This document shows, in pieces, positions 1-22,336 of a DNA stretch of 26,300 nt (position 1 is its first letter; every line of letters begins with the position of its first letter). The position numbers and the translations under genes were made by a program. Below the pieces are notes generated by a model that was given only the letters and a program-made list of their open reading frames with translations, was not told the DNA's origin and made no database searches. The stretch is from a virus (lineage: Duplodnaviria > Heunggongvirae > Uroviricota > Caudoviricetes): the IMG/VR virus record IMGVR_UViG_2602041671_000009. The stretch is one strand, 5' to 3'.

Positions 1-1104
1 TTGCCGGCAAAAAGCAAGCATAAAGGAAGTATCCTGATAATAAGTGGTGGTCCCGGGTTACCAGGCATAAATCCTTATATTAACTTTGACTGGCCAGTCA
101 CAAATCTTCGTGAGTCATGGGATATTATTGGATTTGATCCTCGAGGCGTCGGACAGTCCACTCCGACAATAAACTGCCGGCAATCAGATACAGAGACTCA
201 GGAAAACATAACCGAAAAGCAACAAGTATTAAATAAAATTAATGCCTGTATCCATAATACCGGAGCCGAAGTCATTCGCCATATCGGCTCTAACGAGGCT
301 GTATACGATATTGATCGTATTAGGCAAGCCTTGGGGGATAAACAACTGACAGCCGTGGCGTATTCGTATGGAACTCAAATTGCAGCCTTATATGCAGAAC
401 GTTTTCCCTACAACGTAAGATCTATCGTTCTTGATGGAGTCGTCGATATCGATGACCTGGAGGACAACTTCACATGGCAACTCAAACAGGCACAGAGTTA
501 TCAGGAAACGTTTGATCGCTTTGCATCCTGGTGTGCGCGTACAAAAAGTTGCCCGCTTTCTTCAGACAGAGATAAGGCAATAACTCAGTTCCATGAGCTA
601 TTATCAAAATTACATCACAAACCTTTATTAGACAGTAAGGGAGAAAATATATCTTCAGATGAACTCATATCATTAACAACAGACCTTCTGCTATGGCGTT
701 CATCATGGCCAACCCTTGCAACTGCCATACGCCAGTTCTCTCAGGGGATTGTCAGTAATGAAATTGAAACTGCGCTCAGTGCTCCGATAGCCTCAGAAGA
801 GTCAAGCGATGCTTCGGGGGTAATCCTCTGTGTAGATCAGGGGGATGAGCAATTAACACCAGAAGAGCGAAAATCCCGAAAAGACGCTCTTGCGAATGCC
901 TTCCCGGCTATTAACTTTGACAATGGACGTTCCGATTCACCTGATTTTTGTGAATTATGGCCAATACATAGCGACCTGAACAAAACTCGCCTGAAAAATA
1001 CTGTTCTGCCCTCTGGTTTACTGTTTGTAGCACACAAATACGACCCAACAACGCCCTGGATTAATGCCCGTAAGATGCAGAGAAATTTTCCAGCCCGTTA
1101 CTAA
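1..1104 (+). CDS. alpha/beta-hydrolase fold peptidase (prolyl aminopeptidase / S33-like), 5' partial
   Basis: Frame is open from the window edge to TAA at 1102-1104. Product has GFDPRGVGQS and an A-Y-S-Y-G nucleophile-elbow-like motif typical of alpha/beta hydrolases. True start probably lies upstream of the window. Confidence 0.55.
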   Translation: MPAKSKHKGSILIISGGPGLPGINPYINFDWPVTNLRESWDIIGFDPRGVGQSTPTINCRQSDTETQENITEKQQVLNKINACIHNTGAEVIRHIGSNEAVYDIDRIRQALGDKQLTAVAYSYGTQIAALYAERFPYNVRSIVLDGVVDIDDLEDNFTWQLKQAQSYQETFDRFASWCARTKSCPLSSDRDKAITQFHELLSKLHHKPLLDSKGENISSDELISLTTDLLLWRSSWPTLATAIRQFSQGIVSNEIETALSAPIASEESSDASGVILCVDQGDEQLTPEERKSRKDALANAFPAINFDNGRSDSPDFCELWPIHSDLNKTRLKNTVLPSGLLFVAHKYDPTTPWINARKMQRNFPARY

Positions 1105-1426: not shown

Positions 1427-1732
1427 TCAATATACATTTTGCACCTTCGAGATAGTAATGACTGTTACTGTAACATGAGTTACAAACAGCTTCATACCCA
1501 GAGCTACTGATGTATCAACTCGATTCAACAATACCCGATATTTATTCCATGCCTCCAGCAACGATCTTTCTTCCTCCGTTGCGATTTCCAGATCTACAGC
1601 ATCCTGCAGTGGCGCAATATACTCACTGAATTCCTGGATGTAGAACTGTGTGGTGACGGTCTTCCAGCCATTCGGCTCCTGCTGTATCGAAGCATACCAG
1701 GCTATTTCAATATCGCTATGCTGCGGCAGCAT
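1427..1732 (-). CDS. tail fibre assembly (Tfa)-like small ORF, probable gene remnant
   Basis: 101-aa ORF whose central segment ([38 protein letters not shown]) is near-identical to the C-terminal domain of the Tfa at 4238-4813. Flanking residues are unrelated. Confidence 0.45.
1505..1622. repeat. direct repeat copy 1 (tfa 3' segment)
   Basis: About 120 bp aligns at roughly 85-90 percent with 4270-4388 in the same orientation; identical 40-bp core at 1567-1606 versus 4333-4372. Confidence 0.7.
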
Positions 1733-2455: not shown

Positions 2456-3002
2456 CATCCAACCGCAGCACGTTCTTGCATAAGGCGTGTCTGCGGTTTT
2501 TCAACTATTCAGATACATCACTCCCATCACATTCATTCCTCCGCATCATAGGCATATAGGCTATATCACCTTGATATTTTTCTTCTTCAGATAAAAACTG
2601 TTATCTATGTATACTTTTAAACCCAATCCGTGTAGAGTCTCTGCATAAGATAGTTTGCAGTTGCCACTTCAGCTTGCGCCATAAACCGCCTGATTTTTGC
2701 CGCCACCTGTTAGCATTCCTGTATACCTGAAACGACAATGTTTATCTACGAACTTTAAGAACACCCAGGATAAAAATTGTCAACTATATCATATATAACA
2801 CATTACTAATTCGAGGCTATATGAACAGCATACTGATAATCACTTCTCTCCTTATCATATTCAGCATTTTTAGTCATGCCCTAATAAAATTAGGGATTGG
2901 CATATCCAATAACCCAGACAAAACCGATGTATAAGTCAACATATCCTGAATCAGACATACAATATCGCAATGAAAATCAATAATATTTTAAGGAATATCT
3001 TC

Positions 3003-4237: not shown

Positions 4238-4813
4238 CTACGGCAGTGCTGGCCATTCAATATCCTGTGCAGTTGACGTATCAACACGGTTCAGCAACAC
4301 CCGATACTTTTTCCAGGCTTCCAGCAATGAGGTTTCTTCCTCCGTTGCGATTTCCAGATCTACAGCATCCTGAAGTGGCGCAATATGCTCACTGGCTACC
4401 TGCATCAGGCTGTTTTTTGTTTCTTCCGCCTCTCGGATCCGGAACAGTTTTTCTGCTTCTGCATCTTTCACCCAGGCTGTGCCGTTCCACTTCTGAAACT
4501 CCCCTTCCGGCGATAACCAGGTAACATTTTCCGGTAACGGACCGAGTTCAGAAATAAATAACGCGTCCCCTGACGCTACGTCATAAACCGTTTTACCCCG
4601 ATGGTCTTCAACGAGATGCCACGATGCCTTATCACTGTTGAAAACAGCCACAAAGCCAGCAGGAATATCTGGTGGTGCAATATCGGTACTGTTTGCTGGC
4701 AGACCTGTATGAGGCGGAATATATGCGTCACCTTCACCAATAAATTCATTAGTTCCGGCCAGCAGATTATAAATTTTTATGGTCCGTGGTTGTTCACTCA
4801 TTCTGAATGCCAT
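4238..4813 (-). CDS. tfa: tail fibre assembly protein Tfa (lambda-like)
   Basis: 191-aa [34 protein letters not shown]... through ...[29 protein letters not shown]. Matches lambda Tfa from memory. Start overlaps the stop of the upstream fibre ORF. Confidence 0.85.
4270..4388. repeat. direct repeat copy 2 (tfa 3' segment)
   Basis: Partner of 1505-1622; same orientation. Confidence 0.7.
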
Positions 4814-20172: not shown

Positions 20173-20373
20173 CTAATCTTTCGGATAGATATCCGGTCTT
20201 AAGTCAGATTTCGTAATTGCACCTGACGTGCATTGCTCAAGTTTTTTAGCCAGCACAAAACTGGCTTTTTTATAGCCATTGAAAACCAGCCGTAAGTAGC
20301 CAGGTGTTGAGCCAACTTTTCCGGCCAACTCGCCCTGCTGTTCTTTGGTTAAAGAGTCCCAATACGCTTTCAT
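20173..20373 (-). CDS. cro: Cro-like / YdaS-family HTH regulator
   Basis: 66-aa product from ATG 20373 (MKAYWDSLTKEQQGELAGKVGSTPGYLRLVFNGYKKASFVLAKKLEQCTSGAITKSDLRPDIYPKD) with GGAGG upstream; divergent from the repressor gene. The longer ORF-track frame to 20676 would overlap cI. Confidence 0.65.
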   Translation of the reverse strand: MKAYWDSLTKEQQGELAGKVGSTPGYLRLVFNGYKKASFVLAKKLEQCTSGAITKSDLRPDIYPKD

Positions 20374-20463
20374 ACAATATGTACCTCCGGTGTACATATT
20401 ACATGATTGAAATGAACCTTCAAGATACTTGTACCTTAACGGTACAAGGGTTTTAATTTCGTT
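20374..20463. promoter_or_regulatory. divergent cI/cro control region with palindromic operators
   Basis: Perfect inverted repeat CTTGTACC-TTAAC-GGTACAAG at 20428-20448 and near-perfect CAATATGTAC-(7 nt)-GTACATATTA at 20375-20401; both are built on TGTAC half-sites. Confidence 0.55.
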
Positions 20464-21138
20464 ATGAAAACAATCCATGACATCCGGCGGTCTAACGCCA
20501 GAAAACTGAGAGATGGTGTTGGAGGGAATTCTTCCTTTGCCACTATGATTGATCGCGAGCCAACCCAGACCAGCAGGTTTATGGGAGATGGTGCTACTAA
20601 AAATATCGGTGACAGCATGGCACGACACATCGAAAAATGTTTCGACCTGCCTGTCGGATGGCTCGATCAAGAACACCAGACAACGAACATCACAAAAAAA
20701 CCTGATGTTTCAATCACTAATAAACAAATCACATTAGTCCCTGTCATATCATGGGTACAGGCCGGAGCATGGAAAGAAGTTGGATATTCTGAGGTTGATT
20801 TGAGCACAGCAGAAACGTATCCCTGCCCTGTACCCTGTGGGGAAATGACTTATATCTTGCGGGTGATAGGTGATTCAATGATTGATGAGTACCGCCCGGG
20901 AGACATGATTTTTGTCGATCCTGAAGTACCTGCCTGCCACGGTGACGACGTTATTGCATTGATGCACGATACAGGTGAAACCACCTTCAAAAGGTTGATA
21001 GAAGATGGGACACAGCGTTATCTCAAAGCGTTAAACCCAAACTGGCCTGAGCCTTACATTAAGATCAACGGTAATTGCTCTATAATTGGAACTGTGATTT
21101 TCTCAGGAAAACCAAGAAGATACAAAATCAAAGCCTAA
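20464..21138 (+). CDS. cI: CI-type prophage repressor (HTH plus S24 LexA-like peptidase domain)
   Basis: 224-aa ORF with N-terminal HTH and C-terminal GDSM (Ser) ... FSGK (Lys) autocleavage dyad; essentially no SD before the ATG. Confidence 0.8.
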   Translation: MKTIHDIRRSNARKLRDGVGGNSSFATMIDREPTQTSRFMGDGATKNIGDSMARHIEKCFDLPVGWLDQEHQTTNITKKPDVSITNKQITLVPVISWVQAGAWKEVGYSEVDLSTAETYPCPVPCGEMTYILRVIGDSMIDEYRPGDMIFVDPEVPACHGDDVIALMHDTGETTFKRLIEDGTQRYLKALNPNWPEPYIKINGNCSIIGTVIFSGKPRRYKIKA

Positions 21139-21150
21139 TCAATGTTTATG

Positions 21151-21174
21151 AACCTGCTTCGGCAGGTTTTTTAT
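21151..21174 (+). terminator. intrinsic terminator downstream of cI
   Basis: AACCTGC-TTCG-GCAGGTT hairpin followed by a T-run, 13 nt after the cI stop. Confidence 0.65.
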
Positions 21175-21176
21175 AC

Positions 21177-21209
21177 TTGACAATGTACCTATGAGATACA
21201 TAATGTACC
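21177..21209 (+). promoter_or_regulatory. sigma70-like promoter with operator-like ATGTACC repeats (candidate pL-equivalent)
   Basis: TTGACA (21177-21182), 16-bp spacer, CATAAT (21199-21204). Heptamer ATGTACC at 21183-21189 and 21203-21209 shares the TGTAC core with the cI/cro operators. Confidence 0.5.
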
Positions 21210-21351
21210 CAAGAGAAACAACAAACAGGCAGGACGCCCACGAAGTAGCCGCCTGGGGCATATGAAGTCCAGGATGATTCGTTAGCAACAAAAAAGCGCC
21301 CTACAGGACGCTTAGCTCTTTAACAATCTGGATATCCACAACAGTAGTAAT

Positions 21352-21843
21352 CTACAGATTGCCGTTAAGTTTTCTGGACAACTCCTCAATGGATGGAGGC
21401 GATACGTAATCCGGATTTTTATTCATCAGAAACTTATTTTCACAGTGGAGGCACCTGCTTTTATGAAAAAGCTCATCTTCGCTAACCGGGAATGGTTGAA
21501 GTATCGATACTATCTTTTGTCCAAAACATTTTGGGCAAAGATGCATGGTTATGCTGCCACCGTTCACGATTACCTCCTTCGAGTATACAAAAGTACCCGA
21601 CTCAAGTTGGTTAAGGATATAGCCTTCCGTCTGAGCCTCAAAGTTTTCGAATTCTGCAATTTTAGCTTTGAGAGAAGCATTTATTTCTTGATAAGAGCCC
21701 ACCAGTTCAACGAGAGACACGCATTCGCGCTGAATAGACGCAAGCTTTGAGTTCAGCTCACCAATAGCCGCATTTACTTCAGCTTGAGTTTTTGCCTCGT
21801 TCATTAGTTTTGCAATCTGGGCTGTTTCACGAATAGCCGTCAT
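21352..21843 (-). CDS. hypothetical coiled-coil protein with C-terminal CxxC...CxxC zinc-ribbon-like motif
   Basis: 163 aa from ATG 21843 (MTAIRETAQIAKLMNEAKTQAEVNAAIGELNSKLASIQRE...CPKCFGQ...CLHCENK...). Convergent with cI; weak RBS, and the frame is open upstream so the start is uncertain. Confidence 0.45.
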   Translation of the reverse strand: MTAIRETAQIAKLMNEAKTQAEVNAAIGELNSKLASIQRECVSLVELVGSYQEINASLKAKIAEFENFEAQTEGYILNQLESGTFVYSKEVIVNGGSITMHLCPKCFGQKIVSILQPFPVSEDELFHKSRCLHCENKFLMNKNPDYVSPPSIEELSRKLNGNL

Positions 21844-21927: not shown

Positions 21928-22154
21928 ATAACCAGGTCCACCTCGCCTGATGTGGCTAAAAGCAGGCACATAACAGCTAAGTATTTTCAACCAGAGAGAA
22001 TCCTTAGCGTTGTGGTGAATGCGGCTCAGCGCACGCGGGTTAAGGTTGAGGCTGACAGTCGACCTTCTGTGGATACCCACCCGCCTGGTGTGCAACCTTC
22101 GCCAGGCACCGGGAGGCACCCGGCACCACAACTTTATGCTGTGTGTAGTCCTGG

Positions 22155-22198
22155 CGGTACCAGCTTGTACCCTTGCTTCCGGCTGGTACCGTCCTTTT
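22155..22198 (+). terminator. strong hairpin plus T-run (intrinsic-terminator-like) in the GC-rich leader
   Basis: CGGTACCAGC (22155-22164), 17-nt loop, GCTGGTACCG (22182-22191), then TCCTTTTTA. Confidence 0.45.
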
Positions 22199-22336
22199 TA
22201 CAAAACAGAGAAGAGCATCACCGGACGACGGGCTCATAACCCAATCCATCCGGGCGGCGGCCACCACAGGTGTTCTTCTCTGTTTTGTGGAGAAACTAAT
22301 CGGCCTTGCAGGGTCGATATGATGAGGAGCAGCAAA

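Follow-up and report, generated by a model that had tools for sequence, protein, structure and literature searches.

Predicted repressor operators of a lambdoid prophage with an e14/SfV/SfIV-type immunity switch

The 26,300-nucleotide stretch of viral DNA that we analysed (IMG/VR record IMGVR_UViG_2602041671_000009; hereafter the window) carries, as read from its sequence, the e14/SfV/SfIV immunity module: cro (ymfT), cI (ymfK/cohE), the cI terminator and then a putative PL-like promoter. A 17-bp palindrome, TGTACC-N5-GGTACA, is present three times in the cI-cro gap (from 20380, 20413 and 20430) and twice at PL (from 21184 and 21204). We consider it highly probable (roughly 0.85) that the module serves as the immunity switch of a lambdoid prophage of e14/SfV/SfIV type and that the palindromes are its predicted repressor operators. 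It is a lambda-style on/off switch of the ordinary kind, from a prophage family very common in E. coli.

DNA identity is 99.9% to phage PhiR29_1 and 98-99% to SfIV and SfV, the e14 OR/control region of E. coli K-12 is identical to that of the window, and several E. coli genomes have a cI of 100% identity; cI, cro and the operator DNA are the same as in the e14/SfV group (98-100% identity to SfV, SfIV and e14). Of 5426 complete E. coli genomes, 2173 have a match to the region, and 1316 of these have most of it. The module is among the commonest immunity modules of E. coli and controls e14 of K-12, the Shigella serotype-converting phages SfV and SfIV, and Stx2c- and Cdt-I-converting phages. The e14, SfV and SfIV versions differ from the window only past a mosaic joint (at about 21234, 21283 or 21331, depending on the phage), beyond which the window has a convergent gene without assigned function, e14 has ymfJ and SfV has orf33. 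Public records already annotate several elements: GenBank U82619.2 (SfV) gives a "putative operator region" corresponding to 20379-20447 of the window, MF807953.1 (phage Ayreon) gives a promoter corresponding to 21177-21204, the cI terminator is annotated in both, and the cro gene is annotated as Cro in SfV, SfIV and PhiR29. A preliminary description of this DNA, made from its letters, had proposed an uncharacterised immunity specificity. The type is in fact known, and the operators belong to an already annotated module (U82619.2, MF807953.1); what holds of the proposal is that we found no proof of binding. The literature searched, coverage of which was incomplete so that an earlier description in print is possible, contained no binding, footprinting or reporter data for YmfK-type cI, and text searches for the operator motif and for cohE/croE returned nothing relevant.

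The cro (20173-20373, minus strand) and cI (20464-21138, plus strand) genes are a divergent pair with a control region of 90 bp between them, and several copies of the palindrome overlap PR and PRM, both as in a lambda-type switch; the overlap with PR is predicted, and that with PRM is anchored by a mapped start. PR and its start (~20389) are assigned from position and conservation: the putative -10, TAATAT (20396-20401, minus strand), has an invariant A at position 2 and T at position 6 in 19 related loci. The OR1-like predicted operator Oa (20380-20396; TGTACCtccggTGTACA; like the other sites, given without strand) has one mismatch to the palindrome and half-site columns that are 94% identical across these loci. 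Within it fall the final base of the PR -10, the predicted PR start and the DNA for the cro Shine-Dalgarno sequence; covering the complement of GGAGG, it is the imperfect palindrome reported earlier over the cro ribosome-binding site, and its palindromy extends to 15-nt arms with 87% complementarity. The gap also holds a weaker third site that the preliminary description did not list, the OR2-like predicted operator Ob (20413-20429; TGAACCttcaaGATACT), centred at -43 from the cI start. Ob has three mismatches in the window, only two in most relatives (right half GGTACT) and two to four overall, with TGAACC invariant; the PR -35, TTGAAG (20423-20418, minus strand), lies in its centre and may account for part of this conservation.

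The OR3-like predicted operator Oc (20430-20446; TGTACCttaacGGTACA) is a perfect palindrome with no mismatches. It falls within the inverted repeat CTTGTACC-TTAAC-GGTACAAG at 20428-20448, whose eight perfect pairs and 5-nt spacer are as first described. The Oc half-sites are 99% identical in the 19 loci. Centred at -26, Oc covers a -35-like TTGTAC (20429-20434) and the PRM spacer, and it abuts Ob, with the two centres 17 bp apart. Transcription of cI starts at the A of its ATG (20464), and exactly 6 nt upstream of this base stands the PRM -10, TTTAAT (20452-20457, plus strand). The relatives keep an nnTAAT hexamer at a similar distance from the cI ATG, most of them at 6 nt, and vary in the intervening bases. 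PR and PRM both have weak hexamer matches, below the threshold of the promoter scan. The earlier suggestion that cI is leaderless was borne out by the identical e14 sequence of K-12, where the ymfK start has been mapped with a leader of 0 nt (PMC4681348, Table S3) and is the only start mapped in the immunity region of uninduced cells (PMC4681348).

The sites are not a chance feature of the base composition. Allowing one mismatch to TGTACC-N5-GGTACA, we found three matches against 0.03 expected from 2000 first-order Markov simulations (maximum 2 in any simulation); allowing two mismatches, there were five against 0.6 expected, four of them in the two short non-coding stretches flanking cI. The fifth, inside cI (20829), was rejected as an operator and attributed to chance, because only 2 of 19 relatives retain TGTACC there at synonymous positions. 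Across the comparison set, 19 loci from different Enterobacterales with cI 73-100% identical, half-site positions were 95.9% identical versus 72.0% for other intergenic positions (Mann-Whitney p = 1.5e-9), and the 5-bp spacers varied freely (16 different Oc spacers in 19 loci). Half-sites that are conserved around free spacers indicate a site for a dimeric protein, not an RNA hairpin. In the relatives' loci (~3.6 kb each), matches with up to two mismatches occurred essentially only at the five positions seen in the window (-84, -51, -34, +720 and +740 from the cI start), the exceptions being two loci with one further or shifted match each. Distant cI homologues from Comamonas and Variovorax (27-37% identity) have other palindromes and were set aside as uninformative about the motif.

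The most plausible ligand is cI itself. The ymfK/cohE homologue (224 aa) has a DNA-binding domain at its N terminus and a C-terminal S24 self-cleaving domain, the two-domain build of a lambda-type repressor, with an N-terminal match that is only weak (SPC32H Rep N-terminal domain, 5D50, E 5e-4). It matches Pfam Peptidase_S24 (E 1.5e-26), and in its C-terminal domain is similar to lambda cI (E 2e-9). It shares with its relatives a conserved Ala-Gly site in VQAGAW, the motifs GDSM and FKRL, which hold the presumed catalytic Ser and Lys, and a candidate recognition segment, REPTQxSR. We judged it improbable that the palindromes mainly bind some other protein, with cI recognising something else. 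The case for cI is indirect, and candidates lie next to the sites: the ymfT/croE homologue Cro (66 aa), with a YdaS/Cro-type helix-turn-helix (Pfam YdaS_toxin/HTH_3; phrog_35 'transcriptional repressor'), and the CII(CP76)-like YmfL. A host factor might also serve, and the invariant variant half-site TGAACC of Ob could favour a second protein. Against this, no other repeated conserved motif was seen in the cI-cro gap or at PL; cI and the sites form one mosaic unit with an edge at ~21234 and travel together; and heterologous cI genes (that of ST64B and many further types) have wholly different repeats in the corresponding positions. In lambda, moreover, cI and Cro use common operators.

The second pair of sites lies beyond cI. 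The cI intrinsic terminator (21150-21177, plus strand; a hairpin at 21150-21169 followed by a T run, from the terminator scan) is directly followed, at the place where lambdoid PL promoters lie, by the near-consensus promoter that had been noted there, TTGACA-16-CATAAT (21177-21204, plus strand). It agrees with the consensus at 11 of 12 positions, has a predicted start at ~21211, and keeps both hexamers in 19/19 loci. TGTACC recurs twice around it, as reported, at 21184 and 21204. The first copy belongs to the predicted operator OL1 (21184-21200; TGTACCtatgaGATACA), which has one mismatch, sits between the -35 and -10 and has conserved half-sites around a free spacer in 19/19 loci. The second belongs to the weak predicted operator OL2 (21204-21220; TGTACCcaagaGAAACA), which has two mismatches and lies across the PL start; its left half is near-invariant (TGTACC, but TGTACT in two Edwardsiella loci), and its right half (GnAACA) is partly conserved, with about five relatives having lost it. 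There is a second predicted operator cluster on an early promoter 3' of cI that reads away from it, as in lambda-type switches, with two sites rather than three. The conservation of the half-sites in the 19 relatives and the placement of the sites on the putative PR, PRM and PL support the OR/OL arrangement suggested in the preliminary description.

It seems very unlikely that the 21177 promoter is instead constitutive, serving a small RNA or an accessory (moron) transcript, with the nearby TGTACC copies having no role. The window has no plus-strand protein gene for ~1.1 kb past this promoter, and a convergent gene (21352-21843, minus strand; no match in PADLOC) with its terminator (21313-21294) stands in the path, as such a reading might lead one to expect. 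However, all 19 relatives keep the -35, the -10 and OL1, and the spacer is free; the leader RNA described below also follows PL-type promoters with other operator sets, including a lambda-like OL1/PL. Expression in K-12 likewise favours an early promoter under repressor control: ymfJ, downstream of the PL equivalent, is off in undamaged cells and induced in parallel with the PR operon. Genes on the two flanks of the module are co-induced at a late stage of the SOS response: the log2 fold changes were 1.3/4.1/4.8 for ymfJ (PL side) and 1.4/4.0/4.8 for ymfM (PR side), and the authors credited the late induction to a CI-like repressor (PMC11002266).

Less credible again is the idea that the inverted repeats function as hairpins, in RNA or DNA, and not as protein sites. 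The terminator scan does list 20428-20448, a hairpin followed by a T run (GGTTTTAATT), but the stems never covary, the arms being invariant and the loop free, and the rare changes in an arm break the pairing (GGTACT in a Hafnia phage, GATACA in Pantoea). In addition, the motif recurs on the DNA at PL, where a hairpin function is unneeded, and Oc lies upstream of the mapped cI start and so outside the PRM transcript. We rejected the hairpin or terminator reading of Oc because nothing covaries. That the sites are host LexA boxes giving LexA direct control of the prophage is extremely unlikely, even with e14 genes in lists of SOS and 'LexA-regulated' genes, as the motif is TGT-N11-ACA and not the SOS box CTGT-N8-ACAG, and induction is late, unlike that of LexA targets, and credited to a CI-like repressor.

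The repressor reading of the sites suggests how the switch may work. Dimers of cI most likely recognise the 17-bp TGTACC-N5-GGTACA. In a lysogen, cI would shut PR and PL while still being made from PRM as a leaderless mRNA, with occupancy of Oc limiting its synthesis. DNA damage would lead to RecA-stimulated self-cleavage of cI at the conserved Ala-Gly site, freeing PR (cro-ymfL-ymfM and beyond) and PL, and Cro would probably shut PRM through the same sites. We infer cI as the binding protein, and with it an order of site filling, an activation of PRM that depends on Ob, cooperativity, and looping between OL and OR.

The transcript from PL is predicted to carry a structured leader RNA of ~62 nt (21221-21282, plus strand), with helices P1 (21221-21225/21278-21282) and P2 (21252-21256/21269-21273). 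The RNA covaries in 67 distinct copies and starts ~10 nt into the PL transcript. It forms the left edge of the exchangeable immunity module and is found downstream of many different PL/operator types, directly after the PL-type promoters of those phages; lambdoid phages that lack N and represent some 20 or more immunity types have it in common. Neither an N gene nor a canonical nutL was apparent downstream of PL, where there is a boxA-like sequence only. Rfam searches gave no family for the leader and none for the control region; a sub-threshold STnc100 match at 21979-22202 and noise were all that was returned. HK022 putL, in another lambdoid phage without N, is a structured antiterminator RNA of ~60-70 nt that begins a few nt after the PL start (PMC9378689). 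The leader RNA here is similar in size and position. The topology differs, however: putL consists of two side-by-side stem-loops, whereas here a closing helix encloses one hairpin and a ~27-nt segment. The ~27-nt segment is uniform in the leader set, with 19 of its bases fixed by the design of the search. A covariance model of the leader had no match in HK022 or lambda, and we did not file the RNA as put or nut.

A stronger claim can be built on these features, namely that the switch is not a plain copy of that of lambda. The operator nearest to consensus is on the cI promoter itself and directly adjoins a deliberately weak site (the invariant TGAACC), which might give a different cooperative geometry and stronger negative autoregulation, and the ~62-nt PL-leader RNA might be a new put-like antiterminator acting in cis, or some other RNA device that conditions the early-left transcript as a whole. 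We hold this to be possible and, on balance, doubtful.

The result leaves the understanding of how such switches work unchanged. An explicit five-site consensus would fill a gap in the regulatory annotation of K-12, for which we found no documented YmfK/CohE sites. It would also predict homo-immunity among prophages, account for the late induction of ymfM, a division inhibitor, in the SOS response, and offer an orthogonal repressor/operator pair for engineering.

Comparison with known immunity groups, proposed in the preliminary description, places the window with e14/SfV and not with HK022. As read from its sequence, HK022 has TG(A/T)AC-N5-GT(A/T)CA palindromes in the cI-cro gap and at PL, with TGTAC/TGAAC cores as here; these we take to be its operators as mapped in the work of Carlson and Little. 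Each HK022 site is 15 bp long rather than 17 bp, with 5 bp between the cores rather than 7 bp, and BLASTP detected no similarity between the N-terminal domains of the two cI proteins; the window thus has neither the 15-bp TGAAC-N5-GTTCA site nor the N-terminal domain of the HK022 immunity group. Lambda differs from the window in operator sequence and in an N-terminal domain that cannot be aligned. Spacing differs as well: Oa is placed at the PR start and not at -17, the Ob and Oc centres are 17 bp apart rather than at the 23-24 bp of lambda, and the two OL sites flank the -10 (centres -19 and +1), where lambda has three (-17, -41 and -61). The best palindrome, Oc, is on PRM and not PR; should symmetry predict affinity, the order would be opposite to that of lambda. 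Unlike lambda, the window has no apparent N gene or canonical nutL past PL and no rex genes, so OL and OR are only ~0.75 kb apart. What the two share is the plan of the switch: divergent cI and cro, 17-bp pseudo-palindromic operators, a leaderless cI mRNA, three OR sites overlapping PR and PRM with the middle one at -43 (-42 for lambda OR2), a detectably similar S24/LexA-like C-terminal domain, and a second operator set on the leftward early promoter.

The locus consists of a cI repressor gene on the plus strand (20464-21138, 224 aa), followed by an intrinsic terminator (hairpin 21150-21169 and a T run) and, downstream of this, the near-consensus promoter TTGACA-16-CATAAT (21177-21204), and of a cro-like gene on the minus strand (20173-20373, 66 aa), with a 90 bp cI-cro gap between 20373 and 20464. 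The cI protein has a Peptidase_S24 domain similar to the C-terminal domain of lambda cI, with the conserved Ala-Gly in VQAGAW as well as GDSM and FKRL, and its N-terminal domain bears a weak likeness to the domain by which the SPC32H Rep repressor binds DNA (5D50). The cro product belongs to the YdaS/Cro type of helix-turn-helix proteins, and the neighbouring gene codes for a CII(CP76)-like protein. The DNA of the locus is 99.9% identical to phage PhiR29_1 and to prophages of E. coli ECOR29 and others; identity is 98-99% with Shigella phages SfV and SfIV, and ~95% with phage Ayreon, the Cdt-I phage and Stx2c-converting phages. The RefSeq gene names at the locus (ymfK, ymfT and ymfL) are those of the e14 prophage of E. 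coli K-12, whose cro-to-cI control region is the same as in the window at every base, and 2173 of 5426 complete E. coli genomes contain a match. By near-identity of sequence, the module belongs to the e14/SfV immunity group, and it probably works in the fashion of the lambda switch. Its novelty is low, since the same DNA is already in E. coli K-12, the operator stretch of the gap (OR) and the promoter past the cI terminator (PL) are already annotated as putative features (a "putative operator region" corresponding to 20379-20447 in the SfV record U82619.2, and a promoter corresponding to 21177-21204 in the Ayreon record MF807953.1), and the leaderless start site is already published. Neither a binding experiment nor an explicit operator consensus for this repressor was found in the accessible literature.

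The inverted repeat that the preliminary description claimed for the cI-cro gap, CTTGTACC-TTAAC-GGTACAAG, lies at 20428-20448, and the other elements it listed are likewise present: a second palindrome, TGTACCtccggTGTACA, at 20380-20396, covering the complement of the cro Shine-Dalgarno sequence, and TGTACC copies at the promoter, starting at 21184 and 21204. When TGTACC-N5-GGTACA was scanned over the entire 26.3-kb window, three matches with ≤1 mismatch and five with ≤2 mismatches were found, versus 0.03 and 0.6 expected from 2000 first-order Markov simulations. We refer to the putative operators in the gap as Oa (the second palindrome), Ob (20413-20429) and Oc (20430-20446), and to those at the promoter as OL1 (21184-21200) and OL2 (21204-21220). 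Ob has three mismatches and immediately adjoins the perfect copy, Oc. An extra match inside cI, at 20829, was dismissed for want of conservation at synonymous positions in relatives.

For a comparative footprint, relatives with cI proteins 73-88% identical to that of the window were identified by scanning a single genome per species (Pseudocitrobacter, Klebsiella, Atlantibacter, Leclercia, Phytobacter, Enterobacter, Pantoea, Trabulsiella, Kluyvera, Limnobaculum, Rahnella, Edwardsiella and others), the set was widened by Edwardsiella phage EPP-1 and Hafnia phage yong2, and the cI-cro gaps of 19 sequences were aligned. Apart from a few promoter positions, the columns without variation are those of the half-sites (TGTACC and TACA in Oa, TGAACC in Ob, CTTGTACC and G.TAC in Oc), and across the 19 loci identity was 95.9% in the half-sites versus 72.0% in the remainder of the gap (p = 1.5e-9). 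Ob in most relatives reads TGAACC-N5-GGTACT, with two mismatches, and is thus a genuine yet deliberately imperfect copy. Downstream of cI, TTGACAATGTACC-N5-GRTACATAATGTAC(C/T) is found in every locus compared, and thus OL1 is conserved to the same degree as the promoter hexamers. The left half of OL2 is retained everywhere; its right half, GnAACA, is semi-conserved and missing in about five loci. Within each relative's ~3.6-kb locus, matches with ≤2 mismatches, placed by distance from cI, fall at essentially the same five positions. These relatives all keep REPTQxSR, the candidate segment for operator recognition by cI, very distant cI homologues carry other palindromes, and the palindromes also differ in ST64B, which has an unrelated cI.

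The -10 hexamer of the cI promoter PRM (TTTAAT, 20452-20457) is kept in relatives as nnTAAT about 6 nt upstream of the cI ATG (7 nt in 4 of 19), the bases in between being variable and without a Shine-Dalgarno sequence in the 19 relatives; this spacing predicts a transcription start at the A of the cI ATG. The PRM -35 position (TTGTAC, 20429-20434) is inside Oc. For PR, the early promoter toward cro, the minus strand offers a probable -35 hexamer, TTGAAG (20423..20418), and, after a 16-bp spacer, a probable -10 hexamer, TAATAT (20401..20396), with a predicted start near 20389. The TTG of the former and A2 and T6 of the latter are invariant in the gap alignment, and PR scores under the threshold of a consensus promoter scan. 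The suggestion that cI is leaderless or nearly so was borne out in K-12, with its identical control region, where the ymfK start site gives a leader of 0 nt (PMC4681348, text and Table S3); no more than five leaderless mRNAs were detected in E. coli, that of ymfK being one (PMC4681348). In the published list for uninduced K-12, the ymfK start is the sole entry across the immunity region, and the predicted PR and PL have none. In yong2 as well as EPP-1 the automatically annotated cI start is misplaced, which fits a gene with neither a leader nor a Shine-Dalgarno sequence. We also noted published reverse-strand K-12 starts inside ymfL/ymfM (U00096.2 1203046 and 1203132) that point to cro and ymfK and could be a PRE-like establishment promoter. 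Upon DNA damage, expression of ymfJ, which in e14 is the first gene after the PL-like promoter, and of ymfM, a gene of the PR operon, rises late and jointly (log2 fold changes 1.3/4.1/4.8 and 1.4/4.0/4.8, respectively; PMC11002266), which the authors put down to slow cleavage of a CI-like repressor (PMC11002266). Such co-induction is, indirectly, what one SOS-sensitive repressor over both promoters predicts.

We put at about 85% the probability that the sites are operators of the cI repressor on PR, PRM and PL. Binding of the palindromes by another protein alone is unlikely, as the cI-cro gap and PL regions hold no other conserved repeat and the motif and cI move as one mosaic unit. That the 21177 promoter is constitutive and unregulated is also unlikely given the conservation of OL1 and the K-12 expression data, and the motif is not that of LexA boxes. 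Action as a hairpin or terminator is excluded by arms without covariation: those of Oc are 99% identical, with 16 different 5-bp spacers among the 19 loci, and fixed arms, a free centre and the lack of compensatory changes point to a dimeric DNA-binding protein rather than an RNA hairpin. With cI as the binding protein, its dimers would occupy all five putative operators, blocking PR through Oa and Ob and PL through OL1 and OL2, while the leaderless PRM transcript would be translated into cI, PRM possibly being stimulated by Ob from -43 and limited by Oc. RecA-stimulated self-cleavage of cI would release both early promoters, and Cro would then probably shut PRM via the same sites. Our confidence is much lower for the predicted order of site filling, activation from Ob and OL-OR looping over ~0.75 kb.

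The 5´ end of the PL transcript contains a ~62-nt conserved RNA structure (21221-21282, plus strand). Similarity to most related phages stops at about 21234, and 21217-21260 is a ~95% match to heteroimmune phages (SfII, ST64B, phiNP and others). At least 120 viral contigs contain an exact copy of a 19-mer from this stretch; in those with upstream sequence, a TTGAC...-10 promoter nearly always precedes it by 10-15 nt, and, judged by eye, these promoters carry roughly 20 or more different operator-like repeat sets, one of them a lambda-like OL1/PL. The location of the 19-mer after many PL-type promoters supports the name PL for the 21177 promoter, and its distribution puts the left boundary of the exchangeable module for immunity at the start of PL. 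Helices P1 (21221-21225 with 21278-21282) and P2 (21252-21256 with 21269-21273) covary in 67 distinct copies, chosen by the 19-mer and hence with a central segment invariant partly by construction: 93% of cells are paired versus 18-44% with partners slid 1-3 columns, and 10 of 11 pairs have both-sided changes. The same two helices were predicted by RNAalifold. Rfam has no family for this RNA, its covariance model gave no match in HK022 putL or the lambda leader, and its topology differs from the two-stem structure of putL (PMC9378689). A cis-acting antiterminator for these N-less phages or a 5´ stabiliser are plausible guesses at its role.

Other features were noted in the window and its relatives. 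A convergent gene (21352-21843, minus strand, phrog_1244; terminator 21313-21294), encoding a coiled coil and a Cys-rich C-terminal end and without a PADLOC match, interrupts the stretch from PL to the early-left genes, and transcripts from PL would cross it in the antisense direction. Just past a bidirectional-looking hairpin, and common to SfIV only, the boxA-like AGCTCTTTAACAA (21315-21327, plus strand) agrees at 12 of 13 positions with TGCTCTTTAACAA, the rrn/lambdoid boxA consensus. Just upstream of a yfdP-like gene is a sub-threshold Rfam STnc100 match (21979-22202, plus strand; 42.4 bits versus a gathering score of 47, E 2.8e-7), and 22140-22194 gives a weak match of DicF type. On the minus strand at 4272-4470, Rfam IS009 is matched over its full length (226.7 bits). 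The second 'immunity region' gene block of SfV, Ayreon and ST64B has minus-strand C4 antisense RNA and isrK matches (1434-1622 in SfV; 240-428 in Ayreon and ST64B), for which the window has no gathering-score Rfam match, and yong2 has, by eye, a tRNA-like sequence after its PL region (about 2585-2660, plus strand).

The centres of Oc, Ob and Oa are at -26, -43 and -76 from the cI start and at -49, -32 and about +1 from the predicted PR start, and those of OL1 and OL2 are at -19 and +1 from the predicted PL start (about 21211). For lambda, with the textbook start sites, OR3, OR2 and OR1 are at -19, -42 and -66 from PRM, and OL1, OL2 and OL3 at -17, -41 and -61 from PL. By these distances, the middle OR site here is positioned like a classic activator site, the site nearest PRM overlaps with the core promoter, and OL1 is placed as in lambda; the remaining sites sit elsewhere. 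The arrangement departs from lambda in three ways: PRM carries the best palindrome, 17 bp separate the centres of the abutting Ob and Oc, and OL comprises two sites straddling the -10 hexamer. The HK022 palindromes, TG(A/T)AC-N5-GT(A/T)CA (15 bp; at PL, 820-900, minus strand, and in the cI-cro gap, 1625-1700, plus strand), have cores similar to the TGTAC/TGAAC of the e14-type operator but 2 bp closer together, and the HK022 repressor N-terminal domain is not alignable with that of the window cI; the module is therefore not of HK022 immunity.
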